From: Leucoraja ocellata
Lineage: Eukaryota
NCBI GenBank assembly: GCA_036785375.1
Contig: JAWMAR010000026.1
Location: forward strand, 8,432,001-8,496,000
DNA length: 64,000 bases
Direction: 5' to 3'
The notes under the pieces: model-generated
Seen by the model: the letters and a program-made list of their open reading frames with translations, nothing else
Told to the model about the DNA's origin: nothing
Database searches by the model: none
In this document: positions 16,601 through 54,184 of the stretch, piece after piece
Position numbering within the stretch: position 1 is the stretch's first letter
Layout: the number at the start of each line of letters is the position of its first letter
Position numbers and translations under genes: made by a program

Positions 16601-19600
16601 GGTAGCTGATCCCAAGCACTTGTTTTCTTCCTCTAACTACATAAAATATGTACACTAGAACCGTTGGGTTTGGGGCTGGAGAAAAGTATACAGTCTCCGT
16701 CGCTGCGATTGAGCTTATTATTCATAATAGTGGGGAAGTGGAAAATTTATATTTATCATTTGTACCTTATGAAAACTCAAACGATGAAGAGACAACCAAG
16801 ATTAAACGATTGGGTTTATCAAACAAAAGAACAAAATATACAATGGGGGGAACCTGTCGAGAGAATTTCATAATGGTGACTAAAGTTAAAGCAGGTACAT
16901 AGCTAATGGAAATCTTATTATTTATCAAGAAAGAACTACCATGTAAGCAAGGAGGTTGTGCCATTGCGTTAATTCACATTACAGGCTCTCGTACTGGCAC
17001 CGTTATCTCCAGCGCATTTCCTCCGACTCAGCCAGGTGAACGTGCTCCATACCTATATGTATTTTCTGAGACATTGTTTGCCATTTTCTGATAATCGCAC
17101 GTTCTGTAATCGCAAACTTCACTGGACCTTAATTGGTACATGTGACAATAAACTGACCTTGAAACCTTGAATCGCTGTTTCTATAAGCACCCTTTACCTC
17201 AACGTGTTTGCCTCCATCATTGTTTGGTCCACAACCATGCATGCTCAATTTATCAGTCTGCTGCTCTGATATCTAGCCCCAACACCCACCTGGAACAAGA
17301 CGAGCTTTCTCCTTGTCCATAAACTCATACGGTCACAAGAAATAGGAGTAGAATTAAGCCTTTCGGTCCATCGTCTACTCCACAATTCAATCATATCTGA
17401 TCTATCTCTCCCTCCTTACCCCATTCTCCTGCATTCTCCCCATACCGCCGGACACCTGTACTAATCAAGAATCTATCTATCTCTGCCTATAAAATATCCA
17501 CTGACGGCCTGCACAGCCTTCTGTAGCAAATTATTCCGCAGATTCACCGTTAATCTGTAAGTAATCTTAAGTAATTTTAAGTGCTGCACAATTAGTAATG
17601 CGTTCGAAAAAAATCCCGTTATTTCAATTGGTAACCTGAAACTCTCAGACCAATAAAACAATGGGTGCCATTTAGCAAGTGCGAGGCACAGAAACATTCC
17701 GTAGGATGATTTAACAGGCCTTGGGTTCCCTGAGAAGGGCAACCACCACCTTGTGCTCAACAGCGACACATCTAGTAGAGCTGCTGTTTCACAGCACCAG
17801 AGATACAGGTTCAATTTTAACTTGGGCGTTGGGCCCTGTCTATGTGGAGTTTGCACTCTCTCCCTGTAATCATTTGGGTTTCCTCATGGTGCTCCAGGTT
17901 TCTCCCACATCTCAAAGACGTGTGGATTTGTGCGGCAGCAATCGAGACAGCAGGAGAGGTTATCGGGGATAGGAGTAGGATTGGGCCATTCGGCCATCCG
18001 CCATTCTATCGTGGCTGGTCTTTCTCTCCCTCCTAACCCCACGATCCCACCTTCTCCCCATAACCTCTGACACCTGTAATAATCAATCTCTGCCTAAAAA
18101 ATATCCACTGACGGCCTCCACGGCCTTCTTTTAATTATTTAATTCTGAGGCTATTACCTCTGGTCCTAGACTCGCCCACTAATGGAATCATCCTCTCCTC
18201 ATGCACTCTATCCAAGCCTTTCACTATTCTGTATGTTTCAATGAGGTCCCGTCTCATCTTCTAAACTCCAGCGAATAGTGCCGACAAACGCTCATCATAA
18301 TTTAACCTACTCATTCCCGGGTCTATTCTTGTAAACTTCTTCCATGCTACTACCCTCTAACTTCAATGAATCATTAAGCGACCATCGGACCGCCTGACTG
18401 CTGTTCTCCCTCCACTTTCTTTCTCGCAAAGGTATTATTTCACCACAAACCATCTTCACTATCCTGTATCCGGGAACACCTATTTGCCTTCTCACCGTAC
18501 CTTCGCATTGAGCGATAGATATTATAATGTTTGTCCTTTCAAAACTTCCATTAACACCATCCAGTGATCTGCGTACTCCCGCCAGAGTTCACCTTTTCAG
18601 ATTTCAATTGCTCCAGTATATTTGGTGAGGTCTATTTTAGTTGGGAAACACCAAATGCAAACGGGAGCTGCGGAAGCACAGCGGCGCAGCTATAGAGCTG
18701 CTGCATCACAGCGCGAGAGACACAGGTTTGATCCGAACCATGAATGCTGTCCGTGTGGAAGGTGTACGCTCTCAATGTGACTGCGTTGGTGTTCTTCGGG
18801 TGATATGGCCTCCTCGCACATCCCACATAGAATGGATGTGCAAGTGTGTAGGCTAATTGGCTTCTGTAAGTTGTCGCCAGTGTCCAGGAAGTGGATGAAA
18901 AAGTGTTCTAACAGAGAACTATATACTGGTGATCGATGATCAGCGCGGACCTGGTGTGCTGAAGGCTCCGTTTCCACGCGGTGTCTCTAAAACTAACACT
19001 GTCAATATGAAGATGTTAACTCAATTTCCAATTGTACCTAAAATCGTAATCCATCTTACATTTTCAATTTGTTTCCTTTACTTCTCGTCCTACCTCAACG
19101 AAGTCACAAGAATGTGTTATGGAATCTCTTCTAACTGCATTGACTAAAACCTTAGACCTGAGCAATGAATTCACCAATTTCAGAAAATTGGATGAAAACT
19201 GGCAGTTTCTATGAATGAAAATAATGGAATAAATTCTGGGCGATGCTGGGCGAATAAAATTAACTAAACATAGAAACCATCAGCTGGAATTATCGTTTAT
19301 CCGTATTGTGTTCGCATATTTTCTTATTTCTCCTTTATTTTCATTTTCCTCTTCTATTTGAATCCCATCACAGATCAGCAACGATGATTAAAAATATATA
19401 TCTGAGTTAATGACCGCGTATGTTACTAAATTTCCCTTGGTCTCTGCCCTCCGGTTCATTGGTTTGGTCCCGTGGAACTTGTTTCCATGTTGGATTACCA
19501 TCCCTCTCCAACGTTACAGCGATAAGACTACACATTATTTTACATTTAAGCAATGTCCTTATTATGCAGGGAAACAGCTTTACAAGTATTTGCTGAGACG

Positions 19601-22600
19601 ACTTGTTGGTGTTCTGTGTGCAGTCCTGGTCATCCTGCTATACGTAGAATGTCATGTTGGAAAAGGTGCAGAAAGGAATCAGCAAGGTATTACCTGGAAT
19701 TCATGGCTGGAGTTATCCGGTGATGCTGAGCAGGTTGTGAGCTCTTCCCATGAGGTATAGGAGGTTTACCTAATTCAAGTATATAAAATTATGATGGGCG
19801 TAGAGAAAGTGAATGCTTATAGCCGTTTTTGCCAGGGTAATGGATTCTCAACATGGAAGGTTACGAGGCGCCCAAGGGGCAATTTATTTCTGAGGAAGCT
19901 ACAGAAGCGTATTCAATTGCGATTTTCAAAGGAATCTTGGATAGATATTTGGATAGGAAACATTTAGAGGGGAAATTGTCAAATGCGGAGAGAAGGGTCT
20001 AGGCCAGAATGGCAATTTGCTCGACGTGGACGGGGCGGGCCGACGGGCCATGCTTCCATGCTGTAGAGCTCTATATAATCGGAAATACACAGCGAGTTCC
20101 AGCGTCCGCTATTACACAAACATGCAAACACAACTGTCATATTTGCGCGATATTTCTTACTAATCAGTATCTAATTTCGTACACGGGTCCTACCTTTCCA
20201 TTTCAACAAAGGCATGCCCACAATCTCCATTCAAATAGTTAAAAACCGTCTGGCGTAAACTTTAGGTGGGAATTCATGAAATGCCTCGACATAAAACAGT
20301 GCTATATCTCAGGACGTTATTGAAGGTATAAACCTCATACCCATTCCAGGAAAACTGTGAGTTTCAACGGTCGGAACCAGGAGGGTGACGTGAGACACGT
20401 GGCAACTAAAATTCGATCGGCGATCCAGTACATGCAGGAAGCTGGAAGCAAGGTATAATCCCTCGTCGTTCCGTATTTTAGTGGTACTTATTCCAGAAGT
20501 GATTTCTTGGTCATCTTTATACCAGGTAAGTTCACAGTCCGCCGGGAAAAACGGAGCAGTCGTACAGTTTAGGGCCAGGGAAGGAGTGTTCATCTGTTTA
20601 ATCTTCAAAGGCGTCGGTGACACTGCAAACAATTTAAGACAAATTAGTTAGTACCCCTATATGTTTGTTTAGAAGTAATCGCTTTCGAAATGGATAATAC
20701 CATACCTTCTTGGGCGCTCCTTTAATAGTAAAGTATTTCAGCTACGTTGTTGGAAATATATAGTACAGCAAATACTTGTTATAACGCAGTTGCACCGGAC
20801 CACTATATATGAGCGCTATGTGAGGCGGGTGTCACCACCCATCACTTTTCCCAATGCCTTAATTCTGCCCATGCGACGAATGGAGAAACTATCGGCATGG
20901 CCGACTGAGTCTGGGGACGAGGGGCCAGCCAAGTCTCTGAAATAGAGCACAGAGCATTCGGTCATCTTTGATGAAGCTACCTTGCCTCTGGGATTTCCTT
21001 GTCATGGGCGATTCTCTTTCTATAATGCTTAACAGTTTTAGTTTATTATCACGTGTACCGAGCCACAGTGAAATGCTTTTTGTCGTGTGCTCAATCAGCG
21101 AAATTACTACACATGATTACAATTAAGCCGTCCGCATTGTACAGATTCAGGATTACCGGATAACGGTTAGTTCACGATAAAGTCCAGTAAAGTCCGATAA
21201 AAGATAGTTTGAAGATAGTTTGAGAATCTCCAGTTAGATAGATGGCAGGACTTGACCTCTCTCTAGTTGGTGAAAAGACGGTTTTGGGTACCTGCTGGGA
21301 ATGCAACGTTGCTACACCAGACAAAGCAGACTTCAACGTGGTACAATCAAACGGAAAATTGCGTTAATTAAGTATTCAGTAGTTGTTGATGTGGGTTTGA
21401 AATGGCGCGCTGTGCGGTGGGAAGGGCGTACTCAGTTGGGTGAAGTCTTTCTGGCATATTTCCACCCAAAGATCGACTATAACGCTAACGTGTAATTGCC
21501 ATTCAGAGTGAAGCTTCTGTTCTCCCACTCGACGCTCTGCTGGGTTCCAATGAAGCTCGACGAAAAATGACGGATAACGTTTTGATTAATATTCTCAATT
21601 TGCAATTTAATCATTTGAATTCTGGTTCTACTTTTATCTCCTTTGTTTAGATATTTTGTGACGTTGCATTATTCTCAGATTTCTCCCCGTTTATAATTTA
21701 ATGTTTTTTTTTCGTCTTCCATCCATACTAATACGCCACCACGCACCCCACCTATTCTTCCTTACGGTATCTCTGAATTTCTTGAACAATTTTCACCATG
21801 AACTTTTGTTACTTCCGCTATAACGTTCTAGGCAGAAACTAATTTCAGTAGTCACAGATGTGTTGTGACTCGTATTTTATCATTGATTTTCTTTGAAACT
21901 ATGAATTCCTAAAATCACGTTAGAATAGTCTTACACAAGATTGCGGTTAGAATATATCACGCTCACTATTCATCAAATGTTTCTTCTATCTACATACGTT
22001 TTGTTAACATTTACTATTTGGACTAGATATAACTACATAAATGGTCAAGTATGGTTATTCTGCAACAAAGAGCTCAATTCGTGATCCCCCAAGAATGCTC
22101 CATAGATACATAGACACATAGAATATAGGTGCAGGAGTAGGCCATTCGGCCCTTCAATCTGATCATGGCTGACCATCATCTGGATATCACAGGTCTCGAC
22201 TCGAACGCAATGCTTTTTTGACTAAACGACTGCAGCTACAATACTCACTAACATATGACGGAATATATATAATTGACTACTATCTGCAATCTTAATCTCT
22301 ACTCCTTTTGCAGGATGCAGTTGAGGGGCCGCCAAGAAAGTTAACCCTACACATAAAAATGATAATTAATTGGTATGAAATTAAAGAATAACGATTGCCC
22401 AAAGGTCTCATGGTCCAACAATCACGAAAAACCAATTACGTAGATCGTTAGAGCATAACTTCTAGTACCGACTGAGAAAGGGTCCGTTTATTGCTACTTC
22501 ATAACTCTGTCGCACACCATATTCCTTTTTGTATTGTGATTCGAAACATCAAGGAAGACTCACCGTTTACAATAATCCTCGTGCCATTGCTTTTAGAAAT

Positions 22601-23110
22601 CTTTCCATTCCCGCCTCTCACACTGCAATAATAGATCCCGGAGTCACGGAAGCTCACGTTCAACAGATGTAATTCGGCCGATCCCTTCAGGACATTGTTC
22701 ATTATCATCCTCCTGTTTGCGGTGGGATTCAACGTCCCTTCTTGACCGTCTCTCTTCCAGTATACATCCACCTGTGCATTCTGACCGAAGTTCGGGAAAG
22801 TACAGTATAGGGATACATTTTCACCTTTCACTTTCGTTACCTCATCAGGAATCTGACGCACCCTGAACGAGGAGGCCTCTTCAGTAACTGTCAAAATTAA
22901 AAACAAACGTTAAACATGTGAAATGACAATGAACGGATTGATAAAAATGCAAATAGCTGAAATAGCTCGACCCAAAAGTAAGTTACACATCTTATACTTT
23001 TCGCGGATTGACCTTTTCCCTGTTATTTTCGTTTAATAGAGGGAAATATATTAACCTGTGTGACTCATGAGCAGGGCCGAGAGACACAGCAGCACGGCAA
23101 ACATAAACAT
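13382..23110 (-). CDS. Gene B1: complete inhibitory VJ-C1-TM IgSF receptor (NKp30/CD28-like V, SIRP-alpha-like tail), 341 aa
   Basis: Exons (minus strand): leader 23056-23110 (MFMFAVLLCLSALLMSHT), V 22564-22887, C1 20341-20622, TM 14962-15072 (LVCFLAGGFAICVLIIPALVCYV), cyt1 14301-14344, cyt2 13601-13687, cyt3 13382-13504 with TAG. All GT-AG and phase-consistent, total 1026 nt. Tail motifs SYADM, TTYGQV, LTYATL, TEYAGI. Confidence 0.88.
14962..15072 (-). CDS. B1 transmembrane exon (neutral TM)
   Basis: ccctttag|GA...GAA G|gtaag; GTRVKLVCFLAGGFAICVLIIPALVCYVRRYKLHSTE. Confidence 0.85.
17960..18330 (-). mobile_element. CR1-type LINE 3' fragment (degenerate)
   Basis: Reverse-strand similarity to the other CR1 3' ends in the window. 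Confidence 0.6.
18680..18995 (+). mobile_element. tRNA-derived SINE (HE1-like); related copies near 1283-1460, 17750-17930, 23690-23995, 40205-40375, 54750-55050
   Basis: gcacagcggcgcagc...gagctgctg.ctcacagcg.cagaga head and ctctaaaactaa-type tail recur across the window. Confidence 0.6.
20341..20622 (-). CDS. B1 C1-set exon
   Basis: LNCTTAPFFPADCELTWYK...LYLASSFL...FSCHVSHVTL; C1-set FxP, W, YxxxSxL and CxVxH motifs. Confidence 0.9.
22564..22887 (-). CDS. B1 V-set exon (germline-joined VJ type)
   Basis: SLYC...VYW...LHLLNV...DSGIYYC...KSNGTRIIV; canonical V-set C/W/DxGxYxC; G strand lies in the same exon; phase-1 boundaries. Confidence 0.92.
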
Positions 23111-27759: not shown

Positions 27760-30285
27760 TGTAAAGACTTCCAAACACGTGATGTCTTCACTACATGTTT
27801 TATTATAGATACTGGTATAAAACACACACAGTGCCCTAGCTGCCCGTGGTCTGTCACTGGAGCTAGAGAGGGAGAGAGACGTGAGGAGGCTACAGTTATA
27901 CTGAAGATAATGGGGCATGGTTAGTAGTGGTGAGGTCACTATGTTAAAGGAGCATGCACTGATCTATATCCTTCCCCTCGGAAAACAAAGTATTATAGCA
28001 GTGACAGTGCGAACACGACTCATACGCTAGAAACACCCTCCGCGCGTACACCGGCAAGAAACAGTTAACACATTCAAGCAAACTCCCCGTAACGTACAGG
28101 CGGCTTGACCAACTGCCCGGAGCGGGTGCGCAGCCCACCCTCCACCCCCCTTCCCCCCTTCCGCAGGAAGAGCAGGGACGAGAGCCGGGCCGGCGATAGG
28201 GGAACGGGCAGGAGAACTTGCCGGAGAGGGAGGACGAGGAGAGCGGGGAGGAGAAGCGGGAGAAGTGGGCACGGGAGCGGGCGAGGAAGGAGAAGGTGGA
28301 CTGGGAGGAGCCGGGGGAGAACGGGGCACACAGAGCTGAGACGGCAGAGCCCTGGGCATGCGAGGAGCGGAGGGCAGAGAGGAAGGAACCGGAGGGCCAA
28401 AGGGGGCTGCAGGGGGTGGAGCGGGCTCGTTGACCAGGAGCAGATGCTGGCGGGACCGGCGGTAGATGGTACCCTCGTACTCAACGAGGTAAGACCGAGG
28501 AGAACCTGCAGAGCCGACGACCACGGCTAGCCGGTAGTGGCCGGAGGGGGACCGCATCCGGACCACCTGATTTGGGAAGAGACGCGGAAGGGGACGACAG
28601 GTCCTGGCGTGAGAGCGCTTCTGGATGGCCTGTTTCTGGGCAAATCGCTCCTGGACAGTGGCAGGGCTGAGGACCGAGGGCTGCAGAGATCGATGTGAGA
28701 CAGGGATCGGAGGGCGTGTGGTGCGGGACATGAGCCGCTGAGCAGGCGAGCCCAGGGCAGGGTCACGGGAAATATTGCGGAGGTTGAGGATGGCCAGGTA
28801 AAAGTCCGACAGTGAAAGTCTGCAATGCTCCAGCAACTCCTTTGCACTGCGGACGGCGCGCTCAGCAAGGCCATTGCTCTGCGGGTACTCCGGGCTGTTG
28901 GTGATGTGGCGAAAGTTCCAGGATGCAGCGGAGGCGTGGAACTCCGCACTGGACAACTGGCCGCTGGTGTCAGACTGCAAAGTAACTGGAGAGCCAAAGG
29001 TCGCAAAGTGGCGGCGCAGCTTCCCGATGACAGCAGCAGATGTGAGGGTGGGTAGTAGTACGGGCTGAGCTCTTAAGGAAGCCTGATCTGACTTTAAACG
29101 AGGCTTTGCATTCCTCTCGTATGGCTGCTGCTGTTGCCTCTGTATCTACACCTGCTGCTCAGGATGTTCACTATGCCAGTGCTGCTGGGCGCAGGCGGAA
29201 CGATGGCCCGCTACGCCAGCGTAGTGCTCCCGCACCCGCGAGGGATGGCCCACGTCGTTGCCCCAACTGCAACTTCGCTAGTCATCAGTTTAATGTTTGC
29301 CCCACGCTGGGGAAAACTTGCAATTTCTGCCGAAAGCTAAATCACTTTTCTGCAGCTTGTCGTTCCACTGGCAGGCCGGTCCCTGCTCCACGGAGGAGCC
29401 TAAACAACCTTGCTGAGACTGATAGCACTCTTGGTTCCCAGCACCATTCAGACGAACTCCTTGATTCAGATCAGGCTCCTCCCATGATGAATCGTCTATT
29501 TTTTCGCTCTTGGGTGCACCTGCTTTGATAAAGGATCACTCTGTACGTGTTACCGTGAATGGGTCGACCTTTACCGCGAAGGTCGACATGGAGCTTTCGC
29601 CAATGTTATGTCAAGGAGCCTCTTCGAGCAGATAAGATCTGGTGAGAAGGTTACTCCCGACGACTCCCGTCTTCATGCCTATGGGAGAGGAGTGCTCACA
29701 CCAGTCGGAAAAACAACCCTTATCTGCACAGTTCTGCAGACCTCTCGGCCCCTCACTTTCCTCCTGCTAGACTCTGAGAATGTAACTCTGTTGGGCGCTC
29801 GTGCATGCCAGGACCTCGGTTTGGTTTCCTTCCACCGCGGTATCTACCTGGTGCAGGCCCCCATGGATCCCATGATCGAGTACCCCGATCGTTTTGGTGA
29901 TGTGTTGGGGAAGTTACCCTGCAACTACAAGATCGCTGTGGACCCGCAGGTCGATCCGGTAATCCTCCCGGCTCACCACGTCTCCTTTGCCATGAAGGAC
30001 AGGGTGGAGTCAACTCTGCGCCACATGGTGGCCACGGACATACTCAAGGAAGTGAGTGATCCCACTTCTGACACCATGTAAAGACTTCCAAACACGTGAT
30101 GTCTTCACTACATGTTTTACTATAGATACTGGTATAAAACACATACAGTGCCCTAGCTGTCCGTGGTCTGTCACTGGAGCTAGAGAGGGAGAGAGACGTG
30201 GGGAGGCTACAGTTATACTGAAGATAATGGGGAGTGGTTAGTAGTGGTGAGGTCACTATGTTAAAGGAGCATGCACTGATCTACA
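27760..30285 (-). mobile_element. Gypsy/Ty3 LTR retrotransposon, internally deleted and inverted
   Basis: 209-bp LTRs at 27760-27968 and 30077-30285 (minus strand TGTAGATC...TTTACA; the 3' LTR starts TATAGATC). 5-bp TSD ATTTC, PBS TGGTGTCAGAAGTGGGAT, purine tract. Integrase SPEYPQSNGLAERAVR on minus; gag CCHC knuckle and protease/RT start on plus. Confidence 0.9.
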
Positions 30286-38600: not shown

Positions 38601-40885
38601 TTTTGTCCGCATCCTTTCAATAAAGATGCGCGGGTATGCCGATCCAAATCATTGCTTATTTAATGTAATTTAATAGTTCTGCTGATAGGTTGTTATTAAT
38701 TAATTACCTCAAATTAATAACAATATTCTGTGTTTGGAGGGGATAATGTGAAGCTGCCGCAACACCTAAGCCCAGGTAGTTCATTGAAATTCTGCAGGAA
38801 AGGCGCATTGTCGACTGTGTATTTTGACTGTATCCATTTTCAATAGACAATAGACAATAGACAATAGGTGCAGGAGTAGGCCATTCGGCCCTTCGAGCCA
38901 GCACCGCCATTCAATGTGATCATGGCTGATCATCCCCAATCAGTACCCCGTTCTTGTCTTCTCCCCACATCCCCTGACTCCGCTATCTTTTTTAAGAGCC
39001 CTATCTAGCTCTCTATTGAAAGCATCCAGAGAACCGGCCTCCACCGCCCTATGACGCTATGTGCCACCCTGAAGACATAGAACATCTATCCACCTTTGGA
39101 AAGGAAATACTAAGTCATGTACATCAATATAATTAAGGGCTCTAAAATACAGATTTTCCATCGGCACCCTGGATTAAAAAATAAACAAAATATAGGAATG
39201 TGTATTCAAAAATGCTGGAGAAACTCAGCGGGTGCAGCAGCATCTATGGAGCGAAGGAAATAGGCAACGTTTGCTCCATAGATGCTGCTGCACCCGCTGA
39301 GTTTCTCCAGCATTTTTGTGCACTTTCGATTTTCCAGCATCTGCAGTTCCTTCTTAAACACATAGGAATATGTATTTCTGTGTTGTACGATACTTCGTTT
39401 GTAACTGCTCAGTCACAGCGAGCAAAATCTACCTTGGATTATCTTCCCACTCTCTTGAATTTAATTTAAAAGATTCCTGTCGATTTGGGATCGCAATTCA
39501 CACCAAAATTCAATTTCCACAATTACATTCCCAATATTCCACGAATATTGCACCGTCTGGAACTCAGCGTTGGGCACATCAGGGCCGACATAAACGTAAT
39601 GATGGCGGGGGGATGTTTCTAGCCTCACTGTATAATCACATGATGAAGAGTAAATACGTGTTTTTATCATTTCCAATTTCTGGATATTCCACAGGATGGC
39701 CTGTTGTACCGACACAGCTATACATCACTACACGTTACGATCTGCAACATGGCTATATACGCACTTCGAAGTAATTAGTATTGGTTGTAGCCAAATAAAA
39801 AAAATTCTGCACCTCAATTATGCTTTCATTATATGAGTCATATGCACACAACTGGTATTGGACAGAAATGGAAGCCAGCAACTGCGCTCGTGGGCAATGT
39901 TCCCATCGGTTTATTTCGCGTCGGAAAGTCAAATCGATATATTTTTTTAAAAGACAGAATGACGCTGTTGAACTGATTGCCTGTCCTATTATATAATACT
40001 GTACATATGTTAAAATTAACCACTATTTTTTTTTTTATCGTTTACAGTTTTTATTAATCCACCTCATAACACGATTGTTGGTTGGATAAGAGCAGGATTG
40101 ATAGCTATCATAATCGTTATTTTCATTGTGATATATAAAGGTAAGACTCCGAAGCTACTTGATCTCTAGATTGTTGTAAAATTAACCAATCGGAATTCAG
40201 CAATACTTTAGTTTAGTTTAGAGATACAGCGCGGAAACAAGCCCCCCGGCTCACCGAGTCGGCGCCGAACAGCGATCCCCGCAACCTACACACACTAACG
40301 TCAATTTATAAATATATCAAGCCAATTAACCTACAAACCTGTAAATCTCTGGGGGAAAACCAGATGTACTGGAGAAAATAATGTTTGAGAGTGTTATTGG
40401 ATCGGACACAACGCGGTTAGCTAATCTATAAATACACCCGCCGCATCTCACTAGGTGCATGGTTTCCCGGAAGCTAACCTTTGAGCTAGTCACCGATTTG
40501 TACATGAAGGATTGATGCTTGGTGTTGTGGGCCAGGTTGTGGAATAAGGGGTGGAGTCTGAGAAAATGGGTCGGTGATGCAAAAACTCATTTTGCAATTG
40601 ATTCTGCTTCGATTCGACAACTTGAAGAGGACTCATATTCTGTAGATTTTTAACTATTGATATCGTGATATTAGTTTCACTGCATACATGTATACAAAAA
40701 CAAAAGTAATCAGAAAAATATAAAGTTTTATATGCTGCTAGATGTATTGGCTACCACTCTTTGTCTCGGCCAAGAGTGATTTTTTTTCTCTCAATCACCT
40801 CTCTATAGGGACGTGCAGAACATCGAAAGAAGGTGCCGATCAGAAACCGAAGGCAAGACGAATGAATGAATGTATGGATGAATAG
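32609..40885 (+). CDS. Gene A2: complete activating-type VJ-C1-TM IgSF receptor (TM arginine, short tail), 278 aa
   Basis: Leader 32609-32660 (MMTRVLLQLIVLHISCA), V 32832-33143 ending NGTGTKLVVY, C1 36130-36432, TM 40048-40140 (TIVGWIRAGLIAIIIVIFIVIYK). Last exon 40809-40885 reads through a GT>GC mutated donor to TAG. Phases are consistent. Confidence 0.85.
32832..33143 (+). CDS. A2 V-set exon (germline-joined VJ type, GxGTxLxV)
   Basis: VLYC...HWW...DAGLYFC...LNGTGTKLVVY; cgacag| ... G|gtgagt. Confidence 0.92.
34485..35425 (-). mobile_element. CR1-type LINE 3' portion, young, in the A2 V-C1 intron
   Basis: Uninterrupted 270-aa ORF2 C-terminus 34570-35382; (CCATATAA)n tail. Confidence 0.9.
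35555..35780. mobile_element. Penelope-like palindromic repeat; related copies near 16415-16510, 31350-31725, 34185-34300, 39200-39360, 44625-44815, 55110-55230, 56835-57100, 59030-59145, 59580-59680
   Basis: Long inverted repeat aaaatgctggagaaactcagcggg...gtttcgggccgaaacc / tctgaagaagg...gaaacgtt...ctgagtttctccagcatttt. Confidence 0.6.
36130..36432 (+). CDS. A2 C1-set exon
   Basis: LVCKTATFFPLDLNITWYK...LYEAWSCL...YTCQVSHISL; ttccag| ... G|gtaag. Confidence 0.9.
40048..40140 (+). CDS. A2 transmembrane exon with Arg (codon 40089-40091)
   Basis: tttacag|TT...AAA G|gtaaga; paralog of 1114-1212 with GGA>AGA. Confidence 0.85.
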
Positions 40886-43549
40886 ACACGTATGATAATG
40901 CAGATACATTCGAACGACACTCGGACTTTCTCCCAATTATTACCTTGGTTTGGCTTCCAAATGTTACTGCAAGTCAAATTGCCTGGAGAACAAAATAAAT
41001 TTCCTCGGCAAACATAACTGTTGTAGGCACATTTATGTACGTTATGATATTTATGGAAGCACTGAGATAAAACGAAGAATTTAGTGAAGGGATAGGCCAT
41101 ATGATCCTTCGAACATGCTTGGTCGTTCAGTATGATCATGACTGAACTTGCAAATGCAATGTCTTGCTCCTGTTTTCTCCCGATGTCCATTGATCCCAGA
41201 TAGTTGTTTCCTGCTGCAGGTCTCTATCATGTTATAACAAAATGTACTCCATTGTTAATGTATTTACGCATTTGGATTCGAGTGATTTATGATATAGATA
41301 AATATGTAGATGTTCTCAACTCCCAGAGAAGAACGCGGTCCTCACCACAGTCAGAAGTGGATTTTCCCTTATTCTTTGACAATGATCCCTGGTACTGATT
41401 TTCCCATCAATCGGGAACAAACTTACTCCATCATATCTTTCCTAGACCGTGGATATTTAAGCGTTCTGTGGGCTACCTTCTTAGGCTTCCATATTTTAAC
41501 CTAAGTGCCCCAATTTAATCCAATGCATACGTCAGTCTGGACGCAGTCTACCAGTCTGTTGAAATCTCACTGAACTCACACCACCACAAGAAGATCTGTT
41601 CACAGTCAAATGTACAAAAATACACTCAACTCTCAAGGAGAGCAATCAGCAATATCTATACAACTGCATCGAGACAATGCTTCTTCTATTGTGGAATCAT
41701 CTTGATATGAAGACCATTCTATAATGTGCCTCCTTCGTTGCTTGCTGCGACTGTATGCCCAGCTTTACTGCGTTTCATAATCTATCGGGTTTCAGCCAAT
41801 GATCGTCCTTCTTGTCATTATCACGGAAGTTGAAACCCTCGCATTTATTAAGATTGCACTCCATCCGCCGTGAATCTGTCCTTTATCTCAATATGAAGCT
41901 TCTCAGCATCCACCTGAGTGCTCAACCTCTCACACAGTTTGATGCTGTCGATAAACAGCTATATAATTCCATGATCTAATTATCAATATATATCGTGACT
42001 AGCTGAAATCCCAGCAATGAGCTCGATTGTACCCTGCTACTCGATGCCTGCTACTATGGTAAAACAGATCTGTTTATCTTCACTCTTTCTTTTCTGTTGG
42101 CCAACTAATTGCTGATTACTCTCAGCATGCTAACCTTTAATTTGTTCTAGTCAGTTCGGTAAGATTTTACTGAAATGCTTCAGGTCGTATGAATACACTA
42201 AAACGACGGACTCCCCCTCACATATTCTGTCAGTAAATTCCTCAAAAATACGATAGACTTGTCAAGCATAACCGCTGTTTTACAAATTGACGTTTGCTTT
42301 GACCGGTCGCTTTCCCCATTCTAATTGTTAACTCCCTTTGCTCAATTACTTGCAAAGCAATTTTGTTAAGTTTTATTTTGGTGGTGCCTTTTGGGTCGAC
42401 GAGATTTATTGGTGCCAGTCACCTTCATTCTCCAGTACTGCTTTCACTTAGTTCCTTGCTTCGACTAGACAAGATGTTTCTCACATAGCTCCAGGGCCCT
42501 TTTAAATACTCCATTAAAGCTAATCAAATGGCATATTTAATTGTCCTGCTATGACTGTTTTATGAATTGATAATTCAAACCCTGTATAAATGACACTGGT
42601 CCCGACTGTAGGTACTTAAAATTTCCATAATCTATGTTCCCTCTTCACACGCACGCACATACGCAGACACTTATACATAGAAGGTTTTGATGTCAGTGGT
42701 TAAATATCCGTCAGCTTCATCTTATATTCTACATCCACCCTTCTAACTGCCCTTAACCTCGTAGGTGAAGCCTAAAGTTCTCATAATCCCCAACTTTGCT
42801 ACGTTTTCCAGCCACATTTTATTACTGCTCGTTGGATGTCTTCGGGCTATATTGTGGAATTCCTCGGTATTGGCGCAATAGAGAGGAACTGATTTAGGTG
42901 TTTCCGTAAAAAAACAGCACTCAGTAGTGAAACTGAGGTCTCCAAACTTCCAGAATATTTCCTTGTTTTTTTATGTAATATTCTCATTGTTTCATATCCT
43001 GTATTTTAAGTAGTATAAATCATGGAGTATAGCCAAAATAATGAAATGAAGCAAAAATAAATAAATCTATTTTCACAAAGAAAAAAAAGCAGATATATCC
43101 CTGTGTTCTTGCCTTTTTTGTGACATTTTGCAAGCAACATTTGATTTCATCAAATCCTACAGCTAATGTATACCAGAGAGATTGCATTAATTTTACAATT
43201 AAATAAGTCAAATTCTGATTATGCTTATGATTTTTATAATTTATCACCCGATAAGATGATTTTCTGATACCCCAAGTTTTTGCAACAGAACGTGAGCGTC
43301 CATTTGGTCACGTGTGAAGTGTGTGAATTAAAACCAGTAACAGTATATGTTTTAATTGTTTATCTTTTGTGTTTAAGCTTTCCACTGAAATACGTAATAA
43401 TGAATAGAACTTCAAATCATGCATTAAAAATCTAGTTTGCTCAAATATTATAGCGATGTTTAATTCTGTGTGTTGTCCAGCCCCCCCCCCCCCCACGTCC
43501 CCCTTCCCCCGTTGAGTAACGTCGTGAATACTATATATTGCGCTATAAC

Positions 43550-43580
<31 letters not shown>

Positions 43581-43884
43581 GGTACCGAGATCTCGTAAGG
43601 GAGCTTCAAAATCAGTAAGTGTCCCATTTGTCTTATATGTTTTAAGTGTTGACAGTATTACATTTTGGTAAACCTTTGGTCGATTGTCTGATCATTTATC
43701 GTATTTCTATCGACGTTAAGGGGGGTAACGTATATCAGAGTAGAACATCTCTCATTAAAATTCCCTGCTCACTGCTGATTCTCTTGTAAATGCTAATGTA
43801 TCTGTACAATCTGTGACCCAATGTTAGTAAGGTTTATGGAATTGAAATTGGATGAACGTTAATGAACGTTTGATGATTTCGCAG

Positions 43885-44190
43885 CTATATTAAAATCTTC
43901 ATTCCTGCATATTCTGTTACATTATTCTTCTCCGTTCTTGGGTCTTTCGGAGAAGCGATGAGATCCAGAGTAGCATTGGTCAGCTTATTTTCAGACACTT
44001 CTTTGACCTATCGAAAAATAATCAGAGATCATTAGCTGCCGATTCGCCTATATGGACGACGTACGCGAATTTATATTGGAGCACCCTTCCGCTTTTATCT
44101 TACCTGGGCATTGGTAGTTTGTTTTTCGTGCCGTCTGTTTTTCTCAGTTTTCCTCTGTCCGCTGACGTTCAAATCTGCACACGTCGCATT
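43885..44190 (-). pseudogene. Vestigial B2 tail exons (44104-44190 and 43885-44007) with mutated ITIM/ITSM tyrosines
   Basis: NATCADLNVSGQRKTEKNRRHEKQTTNAQ|VKEVSENKLTNATLDLIASPKDPRTEKNNVTEYAGMKILI*; same lengths and splice sites as B1, but downstream of the stop/frameshift. Confidence 0.8.
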
Positions 44191-44819
44191 CTGAGGGAAC
44201 ATATATTGGAAGAGAAATAAACTCCGCATTTACAAACAACTGCGAAGACGAGGAAACATAAAACAATGGGGTGAAAGTTGGTTGTGCTATACGCTATAAA
44301 CGGCTACTTCCCTGGGATAAGAGCCCTAAAAAGTAATTGAAGTAATTGGTTTGCTTTTCCTGAATAATTAGTGACTATTAGCCAAATCTTGACACGTGTG
44401 GTGCAGAACACTGACCGGAAGTTTGTTGGATGATAACTTCTGGGAAAATATCCAGGTGGCGCGGTTTCTGGGCTCAGACATGTTAGCAATATTTTCCGTC
44501 ATATATCAGTACGAGCTACTGCACAAAAAATGTCGTGTGAGTTTCGAATTAGAACAGGATGGGCCTCGGTGATGATGCTTCACGGAGTGTTTAATTCGCT
44601 TGACACAGACGGGTTATACATAAACTGAAGGTAGAGAATAGGCGGCGTTTCGGGTCGAGACTCTACCTCAGTTTGATCAGTCTGAAGAAGGGTATCGACC
44701 CGAAACGTCGCCTATTGCTTCTCTTCATAGATGCTGCCTCGCAGGCTGAGTTTCTCCAGCATTTTTGACTACCTTTGATTTTTCCAGCATCCGAAGTTCT
44801 TTCTTAGACATAAACTGAA

Positions 44820-45355
44820 AGTTAACATGCAGGTATTAGGTGTCCTAGTTTGAGGAAGGACATTATTGGTATTGTGAGAGTGCAGCGTTGGTTCACCAGT
44901 TTAATTTCCGGGATGGCGTGACTGATATATGACGAAAGAATGGATCGACTGGGCTTATATTCACTGGAATTTAGAAGGATGCGTCATCAAACATATAAAA
45001 CTATTCAGGGATTGGACAGGCTAGATGCAAGAAAATGTTCCCCTTGTTGGGGGAGTCCAGAATCAAGAGTCACAGTTTAAGAATATGGGGTAGGCCATTT
45101 AGGACTGAGATAAGGACACACGTTTTCACCCAGAGAGCTGTGAATCTGTGGAATTCTCTGCCGCAGAAGGCAGTGGGGGCCAGTTCACTGGATGCATTCA
45201 ACAGAGAGTTGGATATAGCTCTAGGGTCTAGGGATATGGGGAGAAATCAGGTACAGGGTACTGATTCTGGATGATCAACCATGATCATATTAGATGACGG
45301 TGCTGGCTCGAAGGGTCCAATGGCCTACTACTGCACCTGTTTTATATGTTTCTAT
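44820..45355 (+). mobile_element. CR1-type LINE 3' fragment, block 2 only
   Basis: ORF 45035-45274 ([17 protein letters not shown]); tttctatg tail. Confidence 0.8.
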
Positions 45356-45559
45356 GTAACTGTTTGGGAGAAAGATTCGCAAGCGCTGGTCGCTGACGAT
45401 CATGGACTATACCATAAGAATACGGGAGGATAAGAAAAATTGCAAACGAGACACATAGAGAGTTTCACGAAAAATGGAACCATCCTGTTCGCCCATCAAT
45501 GTGATTATAATTACAGGCGTCCATTTGCAGAACATGATACGACAGGTTATACAAGAAAA

Positions 45560-48500
45560 TCACTTGTTTCCAAAGTAGTGGGTTATGTCCACAATATGTT
45601 CTGGGGCTAGCAGAGAACATAAACAACCAAATTTAATTATCAACATGTCACAACCTGCCGGCCGATAATCAGTTGAGAATCGATTTGTGACCAGATTCGT
45701 TCGGCTGCAGAATGTGATCATTGCGGTCATGCTATTCTTGTTATTTGAACAAATCCTCTCCTCGTTAGTCCTACTGCTGAGGAAAAGCGCGTGGAAAAGT
45801 TCAAAACCTCTGGTTTGAATACGCTCTCCTGTGATAACTGCCCTTATTTAAACAACCCGACCTTTGCAGCATTTCACATAATGTTAACAGCGCCATCTTG
45901 TATTACAAACGATAACAATGCTTTTACAGCCAACGGACATAATGCTACGGCCGGAGAAAAAGGCCCTGGTGTTTAAATCGTTACATGAGCTCATCTCGTT
46001 GCTCCTTCAATTGAACATTGTTATTTTCGGAGAAAACACGAAATGTTGTAGTTATTCAGCGGGTTAGGCATCGTCTACGGGGATCATCGGTAGATGAAGT
46101 TTCGGGTCAGGACCCTTCTTTACACGTGACTCAAACCCAACCCCCCCTATCCATTGCCTCTCCAGATGCTGCATAAATAGCCGAATTATTCCAGCACTGC
46201 GTTTTGCATCTGCAGTTCCTCATGTCGCAAATCTCAGACAAGGGTGAAGTCGCATCTTACCTTCAGTACTGTCTAATTCGTACCACCTGACAAAAAATAC
46301 CACCGCTAGAATAATTAACACGCATATGGCAAATCCACCCGCCCGAAAGTAGATGAGTTTAAGGCTTGTTCCTAAAGGGAAATGAAAGCTGAATATTAGA
46401 ATTTTTCAGAGAGGTTATCTTCATTAAATAATCAGATTACACGAAACAGGGAATTACAGGATGGGTTCCACATTTTCTCTCATCTCTCAAATGCATGACT
46501 GCTACACAACATTCCATCTGCCACTTGTTTACACTCACGCTCCCAAGCTGTCCAAGTCCTTCTGCAGACTCCCTGCTTCTTCAACACTATCTGCACCTAT
46601 CTTCATATCATCGGAAAACCTGCCGACAAAGCCATCAATTTCATCCTCTAGACAATTAACATATAATGTAAATTGTAGCAGACTCAACACCGACCCCTGC
46701 AGAATACCAGTATTAAAACGTAGCTAACCACAAAAGGCCCCTTTATTGCCACGGTTTGTCTTCAGCCAGCAAGCCAATCTTCAATCCGTGATAATTCCTA
46801 ATGCCATGCGATTCTATTTTGTTTAGCGGTCTCACATAAGGCACCTTATCAAAGGCCTACTGAAATTCTGTGAACGACGCCATTGGTTTTCTTCACTACC
46901 TGCTGTACCTGCACGCCAACTTTCAGTGAATGGTGTACAAGGACACCCAGGTCACGCTGTACCCCCTTACCTAACCTAAACCCATTGAGATAATAATCTG
47001 TCCCCTTGTTTTTGCCACCAAAGTTGGTAACCTAATATTTATCTATATTATACTGCATCTGCCACGCATCTGCCCACTCACTCAACCTGCCCAGGTCAAC
47101 CTGCAACGTCCTAACATCCTCTTCACAGTTCACACTGCCACCCAGCTTTGTGTCATCTGCAAACTTGCTAGTGTTGCTCCTAATTCCCTCTTCCAAATCA
47201 TTAATATATATGGTAAACAGTTGCGGCACCAACACCGAGCATTGCGGCACTCCACTCGTCACTGCCTGCCACTCTGAAAAGGACCCGTTCACTCCTACTC
47301 TTTGCTTCTTGTCTGCCAACCAATGTTCTATCCATGTCAATACCCTACCCCCAATATCATGTGCTCTAATTTTAGTCACCAGTCTCCCATGCGGGACCTT
47401 ATCAAAGGTTTTCTGAAAGTCTAGATACACTACATCCACTGCCTCCCCTTCATCCATTTTACTTGTCACATCCTCAAAAAATTCCAGAAGCTTAGTCAAG
47501 CATGATTTTCCTTTCATAAATCCATGCTGACTTGGATTAATCATTTTACTGCTATCCAAATGCTCCATTATTACCTCTTAATGATTGACTCCAGCATCTT
47601 TCCCACCACCGAAGTTAGGCTAACTGGACTGTATATCCACGTTTTCTCTCTCGCTCCGTTCATGAAAGGTGGGATAACATTAGCTATCCTCCAATCCACA
47701 GGAACTGATCCTGAATCTATTGAACATTGGAAAATGATCACCAGCGCGTCCAATATTTCTAGAGCCACCTCCCTGAGGACCATGGTATGCAGAACATCGC
47801 CTAATTATAATTTATTTCAGTTCCTCTACCCCCCTTTGATCCTCTGTCCTCCAGTACTTCTGGGAGATTGTTTGTGTCTTCCTTAGTGAAGACAGATCCA
47901 AAGTACCTGTTCAACTCCTCTGCCATTTCCTTGGTGCCCATAATAATTTCACCCGTGTCTGCCTTCTGATTTTGCTACTCTTTTTCCCTTAACATATCTA
48001 AAGAGGCTTTTGCTGACCTTCTTTATGTTCCTGGCCAGCTTCCCCTCGTACTTCATCTTTTCAGCCGTATTGCCCGTTTTGTTTCCTTCTGTTGTCCAAT
48101 GAAAGTTTCCCAATCCTCCGGCTTCCGACTACTCTTTACTGCGTTATGCATCTTTTCTTTTAATTTTATTCTATCCCTAACTTCTCTTGTCAGTCGCGGT
48201 TGCCTCCTATTCCCCTTAGAATCTGTCTTGAAATGTCTGGGAGCACAGAACATATCAGACCGTTCAGAGGAACGCACATCAGCCGGAATTATCGCTTATC
48301 CGTATTATATGTATAACCTTTCGAACATTTTCTTATTTCTCCTTTCCTTTCATTTTCCTCTTCTGTTTGAATCTCATCACAGATCAGCAACGATGGAAAA
48401 ATAAATCATCTGAGTTAATGAAAAATAAATCATCTGTTTTAATGCTATAAAATCTGCCTTGGCCTCTGTCTTGTGGTATTGGTCCCTTGGAACTTGAAAT

Positions 48501-51500
48501 ATTTTGGATTTAGTCTGCAATGTTACAGCGTTAAGACTGAAAATTAATTTGCATATAAACAGAAAACAATGCCCTTATTATGCAGGGAAACAGCTTTACA
48601 AGTATGTGCTCGTTGGTGTTCTGTGTGCAGTCCTGGTCATCCTGCCTATACGTAGCATGTCATTATGTTGGAAAAGGTGCAGAAAGGATTCATCAGCGTA
48701 TTACTTTGATGGCTTGATTTATCCGGTAATGCTGAGCAGGTTGTAACCTCTTCCCGTGAGGCATGGGATGTTTACCTAATTGAAATATATAAAATTATGA
48801 TGGGCGTAGAGAAAGTGAATGCTTACAGTCGTTTTTGCCAGGGTAATGGATTCTTAACAGGGAAGGTTACGAGGTTCCCAAGGGGCAATTTCTTTCCGAG
48901 GAAGCTTCAGAAGCGTATTCAATTGTGGATTTTCAAATGATATTGGATAGATATTTGGATAGGAAAGATTTAGAGGGGAAATGGTCAAATGGGTCCAGTC
49001 CAGAATGCCAACTTGCTTGGCGTGGACGAGGCGGGCCGAAGGGCCTTGCTTCCATGCTGTAGAGCTCTATATAATCGGAGATAAACAGCGAGTTCCAGCG
49101 TCCGCTATTACACAAACATGCAAACACAATTGTCATCTTTGCGCGATATCTCTTACTAACCCGTATCTAGTTTCGTAGACTGTCATACCTTTCCATTTCA
49201 ACAAAGACATGCCCGCAATCTCCATCCAAATACTTAAAAACGGTCTGGCGTACGTTTTGGGTGGGAATTCATGAAATGCCTTGACATAAAACAGTGATAT
49301 ATCTCAGGACGTTATTGAAGGTATAAACCTCATACCCATTCCAGGAAAACTGTAAGTTTCAACGGTCGGAACCAGGAGGGTGACGTGAGACACGTGGCAA
49401 CTATAATTCGATCGGCGATCCACTACATGCAGGAAGCTGGAAGCAACGTATAATCCCTCGTCGTTCCGTATTGTAGTGGTACTTATTCCAGAAGTGATTT
49501 CTTGGTCATCTTTATACCAGGTGAGTTTACAGTCCTCCGGGAAAAACGGAGCAGTCGTACAGTTTAGGGCCAGGGAAGGAACGTTCACCTGTTTAATCTT
49601 CAAAGGCGTCGGTGACACTGCAAACAATTTAAGACAAATGAGTTAGTACCCCTATATCTTTATTTAGAAGACAATGTAATCGCTTTCGAAATGGATAATA
49701 CCATACCTTTTTGGGCGTTCCTTTAATAGTAAATTATTTTGACTATGTTGTTGGAAATATATAGTAGAGTAAACACTTGTTATAACGCAGTTGGCCAGGA
49801 CCACTATATATGAGCGCTATGTGAGGCGGGTGTCACCACCCATCACCTTCCCCAACGGCTTCATTCTGCCCATGCGACGAATGGAGAAACTATCGGCAAG
49901 GACGGCTGAGTCTGGGGAAGAGGGGTGAGCCAAGTCTCTGTGAAAGAGAGCACAGAGCATTCGGTCATCTCTCTTTGTTAAAGCTACCTTGCCTCCGAGA
50001 TTTCCTGGTCATGGGGGATTCACTTTTGTTTTGTGCCTAACAGTTTTAGTTTATTATCACGTGTACCGAGCCACCGTGAAATGCTTTTTGTTGTGTGTTA
50101 TTCAATCAGCGAAATTACCACACATGATTACAATCAAGCCGTCCACATTGTACAGATTCAGGATTACCGGAGTCTGTTTAACTCAAGATAAAGTCCAGTA
50201 AAGTCCGATAAAAATATAGTTTGAGAATCTCCAGTAATGTAGGTAGAATCTCCAGTAAGGTAGATGGACTTGACCTCTTTAGTTGGTGATAGGACGGGTT
50301 TGGGTATCTGCTGGGAAAGCAATGTTGCTACACCAGACAAGGCAGAGTTCAAGGTGGTACAATCAAACGGAAAATTGCGTTAATGAAATCATAAATTTAG
50401 TTCTGTTTGTATTATATGTGAAACATGCTGAAAGACAGAAGCAGCTTTATGTATGCGTGGAAGTCTTCTGAGGGACAACGCGCAGAATAATTTGCACGTT
50501 TGACATAATGTGTAGTATCTCGTGTTACCCGGGTAATAACTAAAGTTTTGAGTGAAAAGGGTATTTTTAGGAGCAACAATAAACAATACTGGGAATCTGT
50601 GGGAAGATCCGATCAAGTTTGAAAAACGTTCTGCAGAGTTGTATTTAAGATGAACTTTTAATAGTAGTCTGATAAATCTTAATAGGATAAACGACGAAGA
50701 CACCTTAGTTTTAGTGTACATAATAAAGGTAAAAAGGGAAATCGGGTGGCAGGCAGGGCGGTGGGGGGGGGGGGGGGGGGGAGTAGTTAATTTAGAATGT
50801 GGTGATGCGAGTTAACACATCGGTTGTGTCTTATAATGGAATAAATCTACAGACGCCGAGAATCGATGAAACAAGACATCAAATTAAGAGTGTATCAACA
50901 GAGGAATCGCATGTAAATACCTATATGAAGACTAGTGGATGACTCATATTGTGGCTATATTTGAGGGCTGCAAGCAAAAGTCTGGGAACTGTAAACCAGT
51001 CTGTGGTAGGAAGGCCACTGGAAATGATTCAGAGGGATAAATTATGTTCCGCATTTGATTAAAAAGGAGCTGATGGGGGGGGGGGGGGGGGGGGGGCATT
51101 TAATAGAATGAAATGTTTAGCAACATCCATTACTTAACTCCAAATAGGACACCATCTCAAAAGGCAAAGGAGCGTCACCATTATGCTCCCGTCCACGTAA
51201 CAAAAGCATTATCTCCACATCGGAGGGTAAATCATTGATCTCCATCCCAAACTGATCTACGCAAGTGCTCTCACCAGAAAATATCCGCGGATCTTTCACA
51301 AGTAGTGATCGGAAATGTACTGGAAGCAGAGCTAATCAGACCGTGAAAAATAAATTAAATGAACACCTGGTGGAAAGCAATTGAAGCGTTCCAAGAAAAA
51401 AAGGGAGCATGGGACTGACAATCCCTGGTGGCGGCCAGGTAATTGATCTCTCAATTGCAACGCAAACTTCTTTTCCTCGGTTATTGTAATTTGATGTGGT

Positions 51501-54184
51501 GAAATGTTTCGTTTACAAGGACTTGATTCCACTACTCTAGGTAAAAGGCGATGCATATACTAGATTTATTCCGGTCATGATCAGATACCCCTCAATAAGT
51601 TCACCCCTTACGCTCCTGCGCTGCAAAGAATAAAGTCCTGGCCTGCTCCGGCTCTCCCTATAGCTCAGACCCTCGCGTCGTGGCAACATCCTCGTAAATC
51701 TGCCCTATACCATTTCCAGCTTAAATACATCATGCGTAGTTGCAGAGGCGGATCCGATAGGGGCATCTTAGATATTTTTAAATTGGCAAATATAGGGAAT
51801 GAAAGGATATGTCTCACACAGAGCGGAGATTTATTTAGTTTGGCACCATATTCGGCACTGAAATTGTGGGCCGAAGGACCTATTCATGTTCTATCTTTAG
51901 GAGTTGTTGAATTGATTTTTGAGTAGTTATAAGTTTCGAAAATGATGGGATGCTTTAGGTATTTGTCGTCTTCGCAATACATGTCACGGCACTTAAACTG
52001 GACAAGGTATGGTAGCGTGTCTGTGTGTATTCAGTAAACATAGAAACATAGAAAATAGGTGCAGGAATAGGCCATTCTGCCCTTCGAGCCTGCACCGCCA
52101 TTCAATATGATCATGGCTGATCATCCAATTCAGTATCCTGTACCTGTCTTCTCTCCATTACCCCTGATGCCTTTAGCCACAAGGGCCACATCAAATCCCT
52201 CTTAAATATAGCCAATGAACTGGCCTCAACTACCTTCTGTGGCCGCGAATCCCAGAGATTCACCACTCTTTCTGTGAAAAATGTTTCCTCATCTCGGTCT
52301 TAAAAGATTTCCCCCGTATCCTTAAACTGTGACCCCTTGTTCTGGACTTCCCCAACATCTGGAACAACCTTCCTGCATCTAGCCTGTCCAACCCCTTAAG
52401 AATTTTGTAAGTTTCTATAAGATCCCCCCTCAATCTTCTAAATTCTAGCGAGTACAAACCGAGTCTATCCAGTCTTTCTTCATATGCAAGTCCTGACATC
52501 CCAGGAATCAGTCTGGTGAACCTTCTCTGTACTCCCTCTATGGCAAGAATGTTCTTCCTCAGATTAGTAGTTGCTGATGTGGGATTGAAATGTGCGGTGG
52601 GATATTTCCACCCAGAAATCGAGTACGACGCTGACGTGTAATTATCATTCGTATTGTAACTTCTGTTCTCCCACTCGACGCTCTGCTGAGTTCCAATGAA
52701 ACTCGAAGTAAAATGACGGATAACGTTTTGATTAATATTCTCGATTTGCAATTTAATCATTTGAATTCTGGTACTACTTTCATCTCCTTTGTTTACATGG
52801 TTTGTGACTTGTCGCATTAATCTCAGATTTTCCCCCGTTTATCATGTAATTTTTTTTGTCTTCCACCCATACTAATGCGCCGCCACGCACCCCACCTATT
52901 CTTCCCTGCTATACCTCTGAATTTCTTGAACAATTTTCATCATGAACTTTTGTTACTTCCGCTATAACGTTGTCGGCAGAAACTAATTTATGTAGTCGCA
53001 GATGTGTTGTGACTAGTATTTTCTCATTGATTTTCTTTGAAACTATGAATTCCTAAAATCATGGTAGAATAGTCTGTCAGAAGATTGCGGTTAGAATATA
53101 TCACGCTCACTATTCACCAAATGTTTCTTCTAACAACATACGTGTTGTTAACATTTACTAGTTGAACTAGAAATAGCTACATAAATGGTCAAACATGGAT
53201 ATTCTGCATCAAAGAGCACCATTCGCGACCCCCCTAGAATGCTCCATCATCTGGATGTCACAGGTCTCGACTCGAACGCAATGTTTTTTTGACTGAACAA
53301 CTTTAGCTACAATACTCACCAACATATGATAGCTTATATTTAATTGACTACTATCTGCAATTTTAATCTATACTTTCGCTGGATACAGTTGAGGGGCCGC
53401 CAAGAAAATTAACCCTACACATATAAATAATAACTAAATGATAGGAAATTAAAGAATAATGATTGTCCAAAGATCTCATGATCCAACAATCACGAAAAAC
53501 CAATTACTTAAATCGTTAGAGCAAAACTTCTAGTACAGACTGAGAAAGGGTCCGTTTATTGCTACTTTATAACTCTGTAGCACACCATATTTCTGTGTTT
53601 GTATTGTGATTCGAAACATCAAGTAAGACTCACCGTGTACAATAATCCTCGTGCCATTGCTTTTGGAAGTCTTTCCATTCCCGCCTCTCACACTGCAATA
53701 ATAGATCCCGGAGTCACGGAAGCTCACGTTCAACAGATGTAATTCGGCCGATCCCTTCAGGACATTGTTCATTATCATCCTACTGTTTGCGGTGGGATTC
53801 AACGTCCCTTCTTGACCGTCTCTCTTCCAGTATACATCCACCAGTGCATTCTGACCGAAGTTCGGGAAAGTACAGTATAGGGATACATTTTCACCTTTCA
53901 CTTTCGTTACCTCATCGGGAACCTGACGCGCCCTGAACGAGGAGGCCTCTTCAGTAACTGTCAAAATTAAAAACAAACGTTAAACATGTGAAATGACAAT
54001 GAACGGATTGATAAAAAAATCAAAATGGCTGAAATAGCTCGACCGAAAATTAAGCGTTGTACATCTTATACTTTTCGCGGATTGACCTTTTCCCTGTTAT
54101 TTTCGTTTAATAGAGGGAAATATGTTAACCTGTGTGACTCATATGCAGGATCGAGAGATACAGTAGCACGGCAAACATAAACAT
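45560..54184 (-). CDS. Gene B2: activating-type paralog of B1 (TM arginine, truncated tail), 272 aa
   Basis: Leader 54130-54184, V 53634-53957, C1 49336-49617, TM 46261-46371 (LIYFRAGGFAICVLIILAVVFFV). Cyt1 45560-45606 ends in TGA after a 1-nt deletion relative to B1. Confidence 0.85.
46261..46371 (-). CDS. B2 transmembrane exon with Arg (codon 46343-46345)
   Basis: GTSLKLIYFRAGGFAICVLIILAVVFFVRWYELDSTE; CTG>CGG relative to B1. Confidence 0.85.
46870..48220 (-). mobile_element. CR1-type LINE RT fragment
   Basis: ORFs 47032-47568 (QHGFMKGKSCLT...YLDFQKTFDKVPH...KFADDTKLGG) and 47571-47783. Confidence 0.88.
49336..49617 (-). CDS. B2 C1-set exon
   Basis: Same length and boundaries as the B1 C1 exon; 9 amino-acid differences counted by eye. 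Confidence 0.9.
52035..52565 (-). mobile_element. CR1-type LINE 3' end, block 2 only
   Basis: NLRKNILAIEGVQRRFTRLIPG...RTRGHSLRI; (CATAGAAA)n tail on plus. Confidence 0.85.
53634..53957 (-). CDS. B2 V-set exon
   Basis: Same length and boundaries as the B1 V exon; 6 amino-acid differences counted by eye. Confidence 0.92.

Follow-up and report, generated by a model that had tools for sequence, protein, structure and literature searches.

Probable relic ITIM exons behind a frameshift stop in a putative activating receptor gene of Leucoraja ocellata

The receptor gene B2 of Leucoraja ocellata retains two open tail exons from which inhibitory tyrosines have disappeared, located behind a stop codon in the first cytoplasmic exon. 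This raises the question of whether the motifs or the tail were lost first. The initial annotation had proposed that selection disabled each inhibitory motif while the tail was still translated, truncation coming last. The reading favoured here, with a probability of about 0.68, is that B2 is a duplicate of an ITIM-bearing receptor with a transmembrane (TM) arginine and a frameshift-stop and serves as the activating member of a pair, the distal exons being relics whose main tyrosines disappeared once the tail had been truncated.

The window, i.e., the whole stretch of 64,000 nt analyzed (G000:C26:8432001-8496000, genome of 3.44 Gb), contains two tandem units, each composed of an A gene (plus strand) and a B gene (minus strand) arranged tail to tail. 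A second, inverted copy of the cluster about 450 kb off (G000:C26:7.92-8.05 Mb, L006-L024) contributes a third B gene (B3), present solely there, and copies of B1 and B2 (B1p and B2p). All B genes share a leader-V-C1-TM-tail architecture (Pfam V-set and C1-set; leaders identified). The closest database relatives of the window's receptor genes come from rays and sharks and carry automatic names ('SHPS1/SIRP-like', 'tapasin-related', 'CD276 homolog'). Around A2/B2, the second cluster matches the window at 99.5% identity across 19.5 kb, and around A1/B1 at 95.8-97.6%; the second cluster may be either a haplotype or a duplication, and a sweep or conversion might account for the slight divergence of the activating unit. 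A GC-rich piece at 27760-30283 contains 207-nt direct repeats (97% alike) and ORF fragments which we take to be gag/protease/integrase-like, the piece presumably being retroelement-like; LINE and SINE fragments are abundant elsewhere in the window. The features relevant to the B genes are as follows:

13382-23110, minus strand: B1, inhibitory-type paralogue
23056-23110, 22564-22887 and 14962-15072, minus strand: B1 leader, V and TM exons
14301-14344, 13601-13687 and 13382-13504, minus strand: B1 tail exons c1, c2 and c3
54130-54184, minus strand: B2 leader exon, 18 codons plus phase-1 donor; most similar to leaders of rays/sharks, with conservation in B1, B1p and B3
53634-53957, minus strand: B2 V-set exon (Pfam V-set, 5.4e-14)
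49336-49617, minus strand: B2 C1-set exon, 96.2% identity to B1 (Pfam C1-set, 6.8e-13)
46261-46371, minus strand: B2 TM exon, containing IYFRAGGF with Leu>Arg at 46343-46345
45560-45606, minus strand: B2 c1, first cytoplasmic exon, 1-nt deletion in an A run near 45567
44104-44190, minus strand: B2 c2, relic tail exon, 87 nt, Tyr1>Cys at 44180 and Tyr2>Asn at 44112
43885-44007, minus strand: B2 c3, relic tail exon, 123 nt, Tyr3>Asn at 43977 and Ile>Met at 43900 giving YAGM
41663-43681, no strand: replacement stretch, 2 kb in place of 10.5 kb of the A1-B1 interval, removing the A2 Tyr exons and an AATAAA

Leader, V, C1 and TM of B2 are all intact. Identity to B1 decreases from 97.5% in V and about 96% in C1 to 88% in TM and 82% (81.9%) in the tail; such conservation of the ectodomain, against a 12-18% difference in TM and tail, is what gene conversion would be expected to produce in paired receptors. 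The TM codon at 46343-46345 is CGG in B2 versus CTG in B1, B1p and B3, and this Leu>Arg exchange, absent from the initial annotation, is what makes the activating reading. No close B2 orthologue with an FRAGG-type TM was present among the relatives from the protein searches. A separate search with the B2 V exon as query gave 1 match among 75 candidates. A previously considered leader at 25978-26228/56259-56509 was dropped, the real leader being 54130-54184.

The truncating deletion is real. Compared with 44 nt in B1, c1 of B2 comprises 43 nt to the old donor, and the frame reads ...HYFGNK followed by an in-frame TGA (45560-45562). Since the deletion is also present in B2p and in a further sample bearing this species label, where a 1,121-nt contig piece (record 16) crosses the site gap-free and with a single other letter, it is not an assembly error. 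The old donor at 45563 is weakened, its U1 duplex scoring -2.2 kcal/mol versus -8.1/-8.3 kcal/mol in B1/B3 by a rough measure built on the U1 end. Splicing at this donor would, as annotated initially, frameshift into c2 (MRRVQI-stop). This stop lies 65 nt ahead of the last junction, and with the NMD distance rule at 50-55 nt such a message is a likely NMD target. The AATAAA behind c3 in B1, B1p and B3 is gone in B2; beyond the c1 stop, the intron contains an ATTAAA (44905), which is a candidate poly(A) site. A short ITIM-less tail is predicted from the DNA by both routes, intron read-through and the old donor. This short tail has a new Tyr (45575-45577, THYFGNK), which is not known to match any motif. 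A candidate mini-exon of 21 nt in the c1-c2 interval (44416-44436 in B2) was ruled out, B3 being without 4 nt of it and B1p carrying an in-frame TAA.

The favoured reading would involve the following course. A duplicate of an ITIM-bearing V-C1 receptor would have gained the TM Arg, and the frameshift and stop in c1 would have cut off the inhibitory tail. The B2 message probably reads through into the c1 intron, yielding a 25-residue tail and presumably using the ATTAAA at 44905, whereas c2 and c3 would be left as likely untranslated relics, in which the later Tyr1 and Tyr3 changes may have accumulated by drift. By analogy with NKp30 and NKp46, an ITAM adaptor of the FcR-gamma/CD3-zeta type may provide the Asp that partners the TM Arg. 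B2 is accordingly likely to be the activating partner of the ITIM-bearing B1/B3.

As described initially, c2 and c3 of B2 have kept the lengths of B1 (87 and 123 nt), AG/GT ends and open frames, and the exchanges SYADM>TCADL, TTYGQ>TTNAQ, LTYATL>LTNATL and TEYAGI>TEYAGM were all found again. At this divergence an open frame has about an even chance (P of no stop 0.46-0.55; P of no indel about 0.15). Motifs were compared with the ITIM consensus. The last exchange does produce the YxxM pattern (YAGM), yet behind the stop, in a stretch predicted to be untranslated in the main product.

The exon-initial Tyr, previously counted as a fifth loss, was not lost in B2. The first c2 codon is AAT (Asn) in B3 as well, and the position is Ser, where aligned, in 11 long-tailed shark/ray proteins carrying the segment or its neighbours, which points to a gain in B1 (Asn>Tyr at 13685-13687). 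Since this Tyr is B1-specific, the count becomes three of four shared Tyr codons, not four of five. The earlier pairwise version (4/5 Tyr among 38 differences) gives P = 0.075; for the loss of three of four, P is modest and post hoc (about 0.01-0.03). For at least three of the four codons, P is 0.024-0.033 with 19-20 random changes and 0.008-0.018 with 12-16. The latter numbers were used because B2 is the deepest of the three B genes (identity of the intron between TM and c1: B1-B3 88.5%, B2-B1 83.6%, B2-B3 81.8%) and its own branch therefore probably carries fewer changes. Tyr2, moreover, is Asn (T-N-A) in 6 of 14 rows of the protein alignment, i.e., in manta and stingray proteins whose tail is long and whose other motifs are intact, and is thus dispensable; with Tyr2 left out, P is 0.05-0.11. 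Both Phe codons (2/2) are also lost in B2. As the locus was picked for its Tyr pattern, these P values give weak support for selection.

Where B1 and B3 agree, B2-only changes affect 20/183 positions in c2+c3 (0.11) and 141/1052 in the introns (0.13; Fisher P = 0.41), compared with 19/143 in the 3' UTR and 7/98 in TM, the lowest rate on the B2 branch. The pN/pS of the B2 relic exons is 0.77-1.04; however, the working tail of B1 is fast-changing too (13 non-synonymous, 3 synonymous changes), so that pN/pS cannot separate a relic from a working tail. Taken together, the reduced count, the modest P, the intron-like rate and the Asn at Tyr2 in long-tailed rays fall short of showing selection against each motif during translation.

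The order of events is best approached through related organisms. Contigs of 4 of 24 runs, one each of organisms A-D, were compared over 43800-46420; the small shares of organisms E-H may be repeats. The comparison considers 40 of 181 differences, all 40 of which are fixed in at least one run. Organism B is about 2% from the window and is the same at 44180 and 43977, while organisms C and D are 3-4% from it and have TAT at both positions in every contig there. In organism C, Tyr accounts for the entire contig depth (111.6/111.6 at 43977 and 79.2/79.2 at 44180). In organism D, where coverage comprises the tail exons and c1 and TM are uncovered, both Tyr lie on one 823-nt contig that is 96.7% like B2 versus 82-86% for B1/B3.

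Organism C further has a c1 that is one base shorter than in B1/B3 and followed by TGA, with the old donor destroyed (GT>AT at 45563). The contig, covering 45437-45775, has 13 other letters and 14 gap letters, the latter being one 14-nt intron insertion that restores a B3-like intron. The c1 and tail contigs of organism C are physically unlinked, with repeats between; as they end at the very repeat insertions that lie between the window's c1 and c2, they fit one gene. If so, organism C would possess a B2-type gene with the stop and both main ITIM tyrosines. Over 44363-44625, two lineages of B2 type seem to coexist in organism C, at depths of about 46 and 25; derived states of one are shared by D, those of the other by A and B. 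The c1 contig, of depth 52, goes with the D-like lineage, so that the cut would predate the separation of these lineages. Since none of the differences considered falls at 46344, 44112 or 43900, Arg, Tyr2>Asn and Ile>Met are presumably already present in organism C. The order would then be Arg, cut, Tyr2>Asn and Ile>Met (in whichever sequence), followed by Tyr1>Cys and Tyr3>Asn on the A/B branch.

Truncation thus most likely preceded the loss of the two main ITIM tyrosines, the reverse of the order first proposed, which is contradicted for its two best ITIM tyrosines by the combination of frameshift, stop, dead donor and TAT at 44180 and 43977 in organism C. The long-tailed, Tyr-less intermediate expected from that order was looked for; it is absent among B1, B1p, B2p, B3 and the ray/shark proteins searched, and organism C has the opposite form. 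The proposed direction from an inhibitory B1-like form to an activating B2 is right, although it is the outgroups and not the Tyr argument that show it: shark/ray relatives, B1 and B3 have a long ITIM tail and no Arg in the matching TM exon, and the shark/ray relatives show the long tail to be ancestral.

One aspect fits drift less readily. On the recent branch (after the C/D split), three changes are seen in c2+c3 (43972, silent; 43977; 44180), two of which remove Tyr1 and Tyr3 (P = 0.0025 by simulation; 0.004-0.014 at branch rates of 1.5-3%; overall about 0.003-0.006). This concentration is more than drift readily gives and could be explained by chance or a leaky long isoform. In the latter case, a minor splice form in the A/B lineage would have restored the c2/c3 frame, and selection would have removed the two ITIM tyrosines and spared YxxM, the same problem being solved in organism C by killing the c1 donor. 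We consider this unlikely, even though the excess of recent Tyr hits is joined by a cryptic donor in the B2 TM exon (CAG/GTGGTA at 46286; U1 -8.5 kcal/mol, top 2% of 676 GT sites) that originated along this A+B branch as well. Combined with the 43-nt c1 and the old donor, it yields in the window a stop-free path to the c3 stop that ends in YAGM, and both c1 changes on the window lineage (45570, 45591) abolish a TGA in the long-path frame. However, the path is shut in organism B by a TGA at 45591-45593, though B is already without both Tyr, and it requires the weak old donor, as good a score being reached by 45% of GT sites. Open paths are also common by chance (48/888 or 5% for the window, 30/1080 for B-like and 4/861 for C-like sequences), the remaining B-like ones rely on weak sites, and the old place is without a poly(A) signal. 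Rather improbable, too, is the specific version in which the new TM donor re-opened the tail, selection stripped both ITIM tyrosines and kept YxxM, and the sister lineage destroyed its donor and kept the tyrosines. If true, it would mean a receptor combining a TM Arg with a PI3K motif of its own, and two solutions to one leaky switch across living species.

The order proposed initially, with all motifs disabled by selection in a translated tail and the cut last, is now quite improbable. It can draw on the three of four Tyr lost, the intact frames and splice sites, and on Tyr2>Asn and Ile>Met, which seem older and could predate the cut. The stop together with intact Tyr1 and Tyr3 in organism C nevertheless requires either two missing contigs there or a tail converted back later from a paralogue, and the form it predicts is absent as described above. 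That B2 is a decaying pseudogene with an incidental Arg is very unlikely, since the frameshift, the weakened donor, the lost poly(A) signal and the probable NMD fate of old-donor messages are opposed by intact leader, V, C1 and TM exons, by TM having the lowest rate on the B2 branch, and by an Arg gain at a like place in A2.

The A2 gene of the same duplicated unit is indeed predicted to have made a parallel switch, combining an Arg gain with deletion of its Tyr exons:

40048-40140, plus strand: A2 TM exon, Gly>Arg at 40089-40091 (GWIRAGL; A1 has GCIGAGL)

A2 (40048-41663) lacks all Tyr exons that A1 (2818-11580) has at 2818-2931 and 8890-9012. A single replacement of 10.5 kb by 2 kb explains both the lost Tyr exons of A2 and the lost poly(A) signal of B2.

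Taking B2 as an activating receptor with relic exons, one comparison is with the shark/ray V-C1 ITIM receptors, which have 54-59% identity in V and share the tail motifs xYAxLN, VYAQ, LTYA and TEYAxI. Short-tailed ray/shark relatives (P0007, P0008, P0012, P0014, P0019 and P0022) have an Arg in another TM exon and appear to represent an older activating solution. Unlike those with a CRILLG-type TM exon (P0007, P0012), B2 and A2 acquired their Arg anew within the TM exon of the inhibitory form; a CRILLG-type short TM exon was not found in 114 kb around the window or in 146.5 kb of the second cluster. The literature search, with subscription papers and supplements outside its scope, yielded no description of paired forms of this ray/shark V-C1 family or of Tyr-less relic tail exons.

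SIRP (alpha/beta) has a V and two C1-set domains, differing from the one V and one C1 exon of B2. NKp30 is among the PDB matches of the B2 V domain (E 3.6e-5). In NKp30 and NKp46, a TM Arg pairs with the Asp of CD3-zeta/FcR-gamma (PMC6514059). B2 resembles them in its TM Arg, but unlike NKp30/NCR3 (a single IgV) it has V plus a C1-set exon and a recent ITIM-bearing ancestor. YxxM is described as the PI3K site of CD28/ICOS tails (PMC11599192); the YAGM of B2 fits this motif by one Ile>Met exchange, but sits in a relic exon behind the stop. Canonical B2 splice paths end before it, and it is reached by cryptic paths only.

For KIR and Ly49, activating receptors are reported to derive from inhibitory ones by a basic TM residue and ITIM loss via a stop (PMC2213150, Abi-Rached and Parham 2005). 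According to the same text, the charge preceded ITIM loss in rat Ly49s3, with charge-first intermediates in rat Ly49, whereas in KIR it could not be decided whether charge or stop came first (PMC2213150). Cattle KLRC1 is described as having both Arg and ITIMs (PMC12227049, bioRxiv 10.1101/069922). Like KIR2DS/3DS and activating Ly49, B2 has a basic TM residue, a predicted stop-caused ITIM loss and an ectodomain shared with its inhibitory partner. It differs in its V-C1 ectodomain, its occurrence in cartilaginous fish, the Arg at the outer TM end and the whole exons left behind the stop. The process itself is already known from KIR and Ly49; the little-studied family is new to it. The inhibitory-to-activating switch is thereby extended to an extensive and scarcely described V-C1 family of cartilaginous fish. 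A single duplicated unit contains two such switches in parallel (A2, B2), and some of the steps can be put in order from living relatives, whereas the KIR study left charge and stop unordered. The case also cautions that Tyr loss in an open relic exon is no proof of selection before truncation. As judged from its sequence, B2 would thus work like KIR/Ly49, while by architecture it is neither KIR, Ly49, SIRP nor NKp30.
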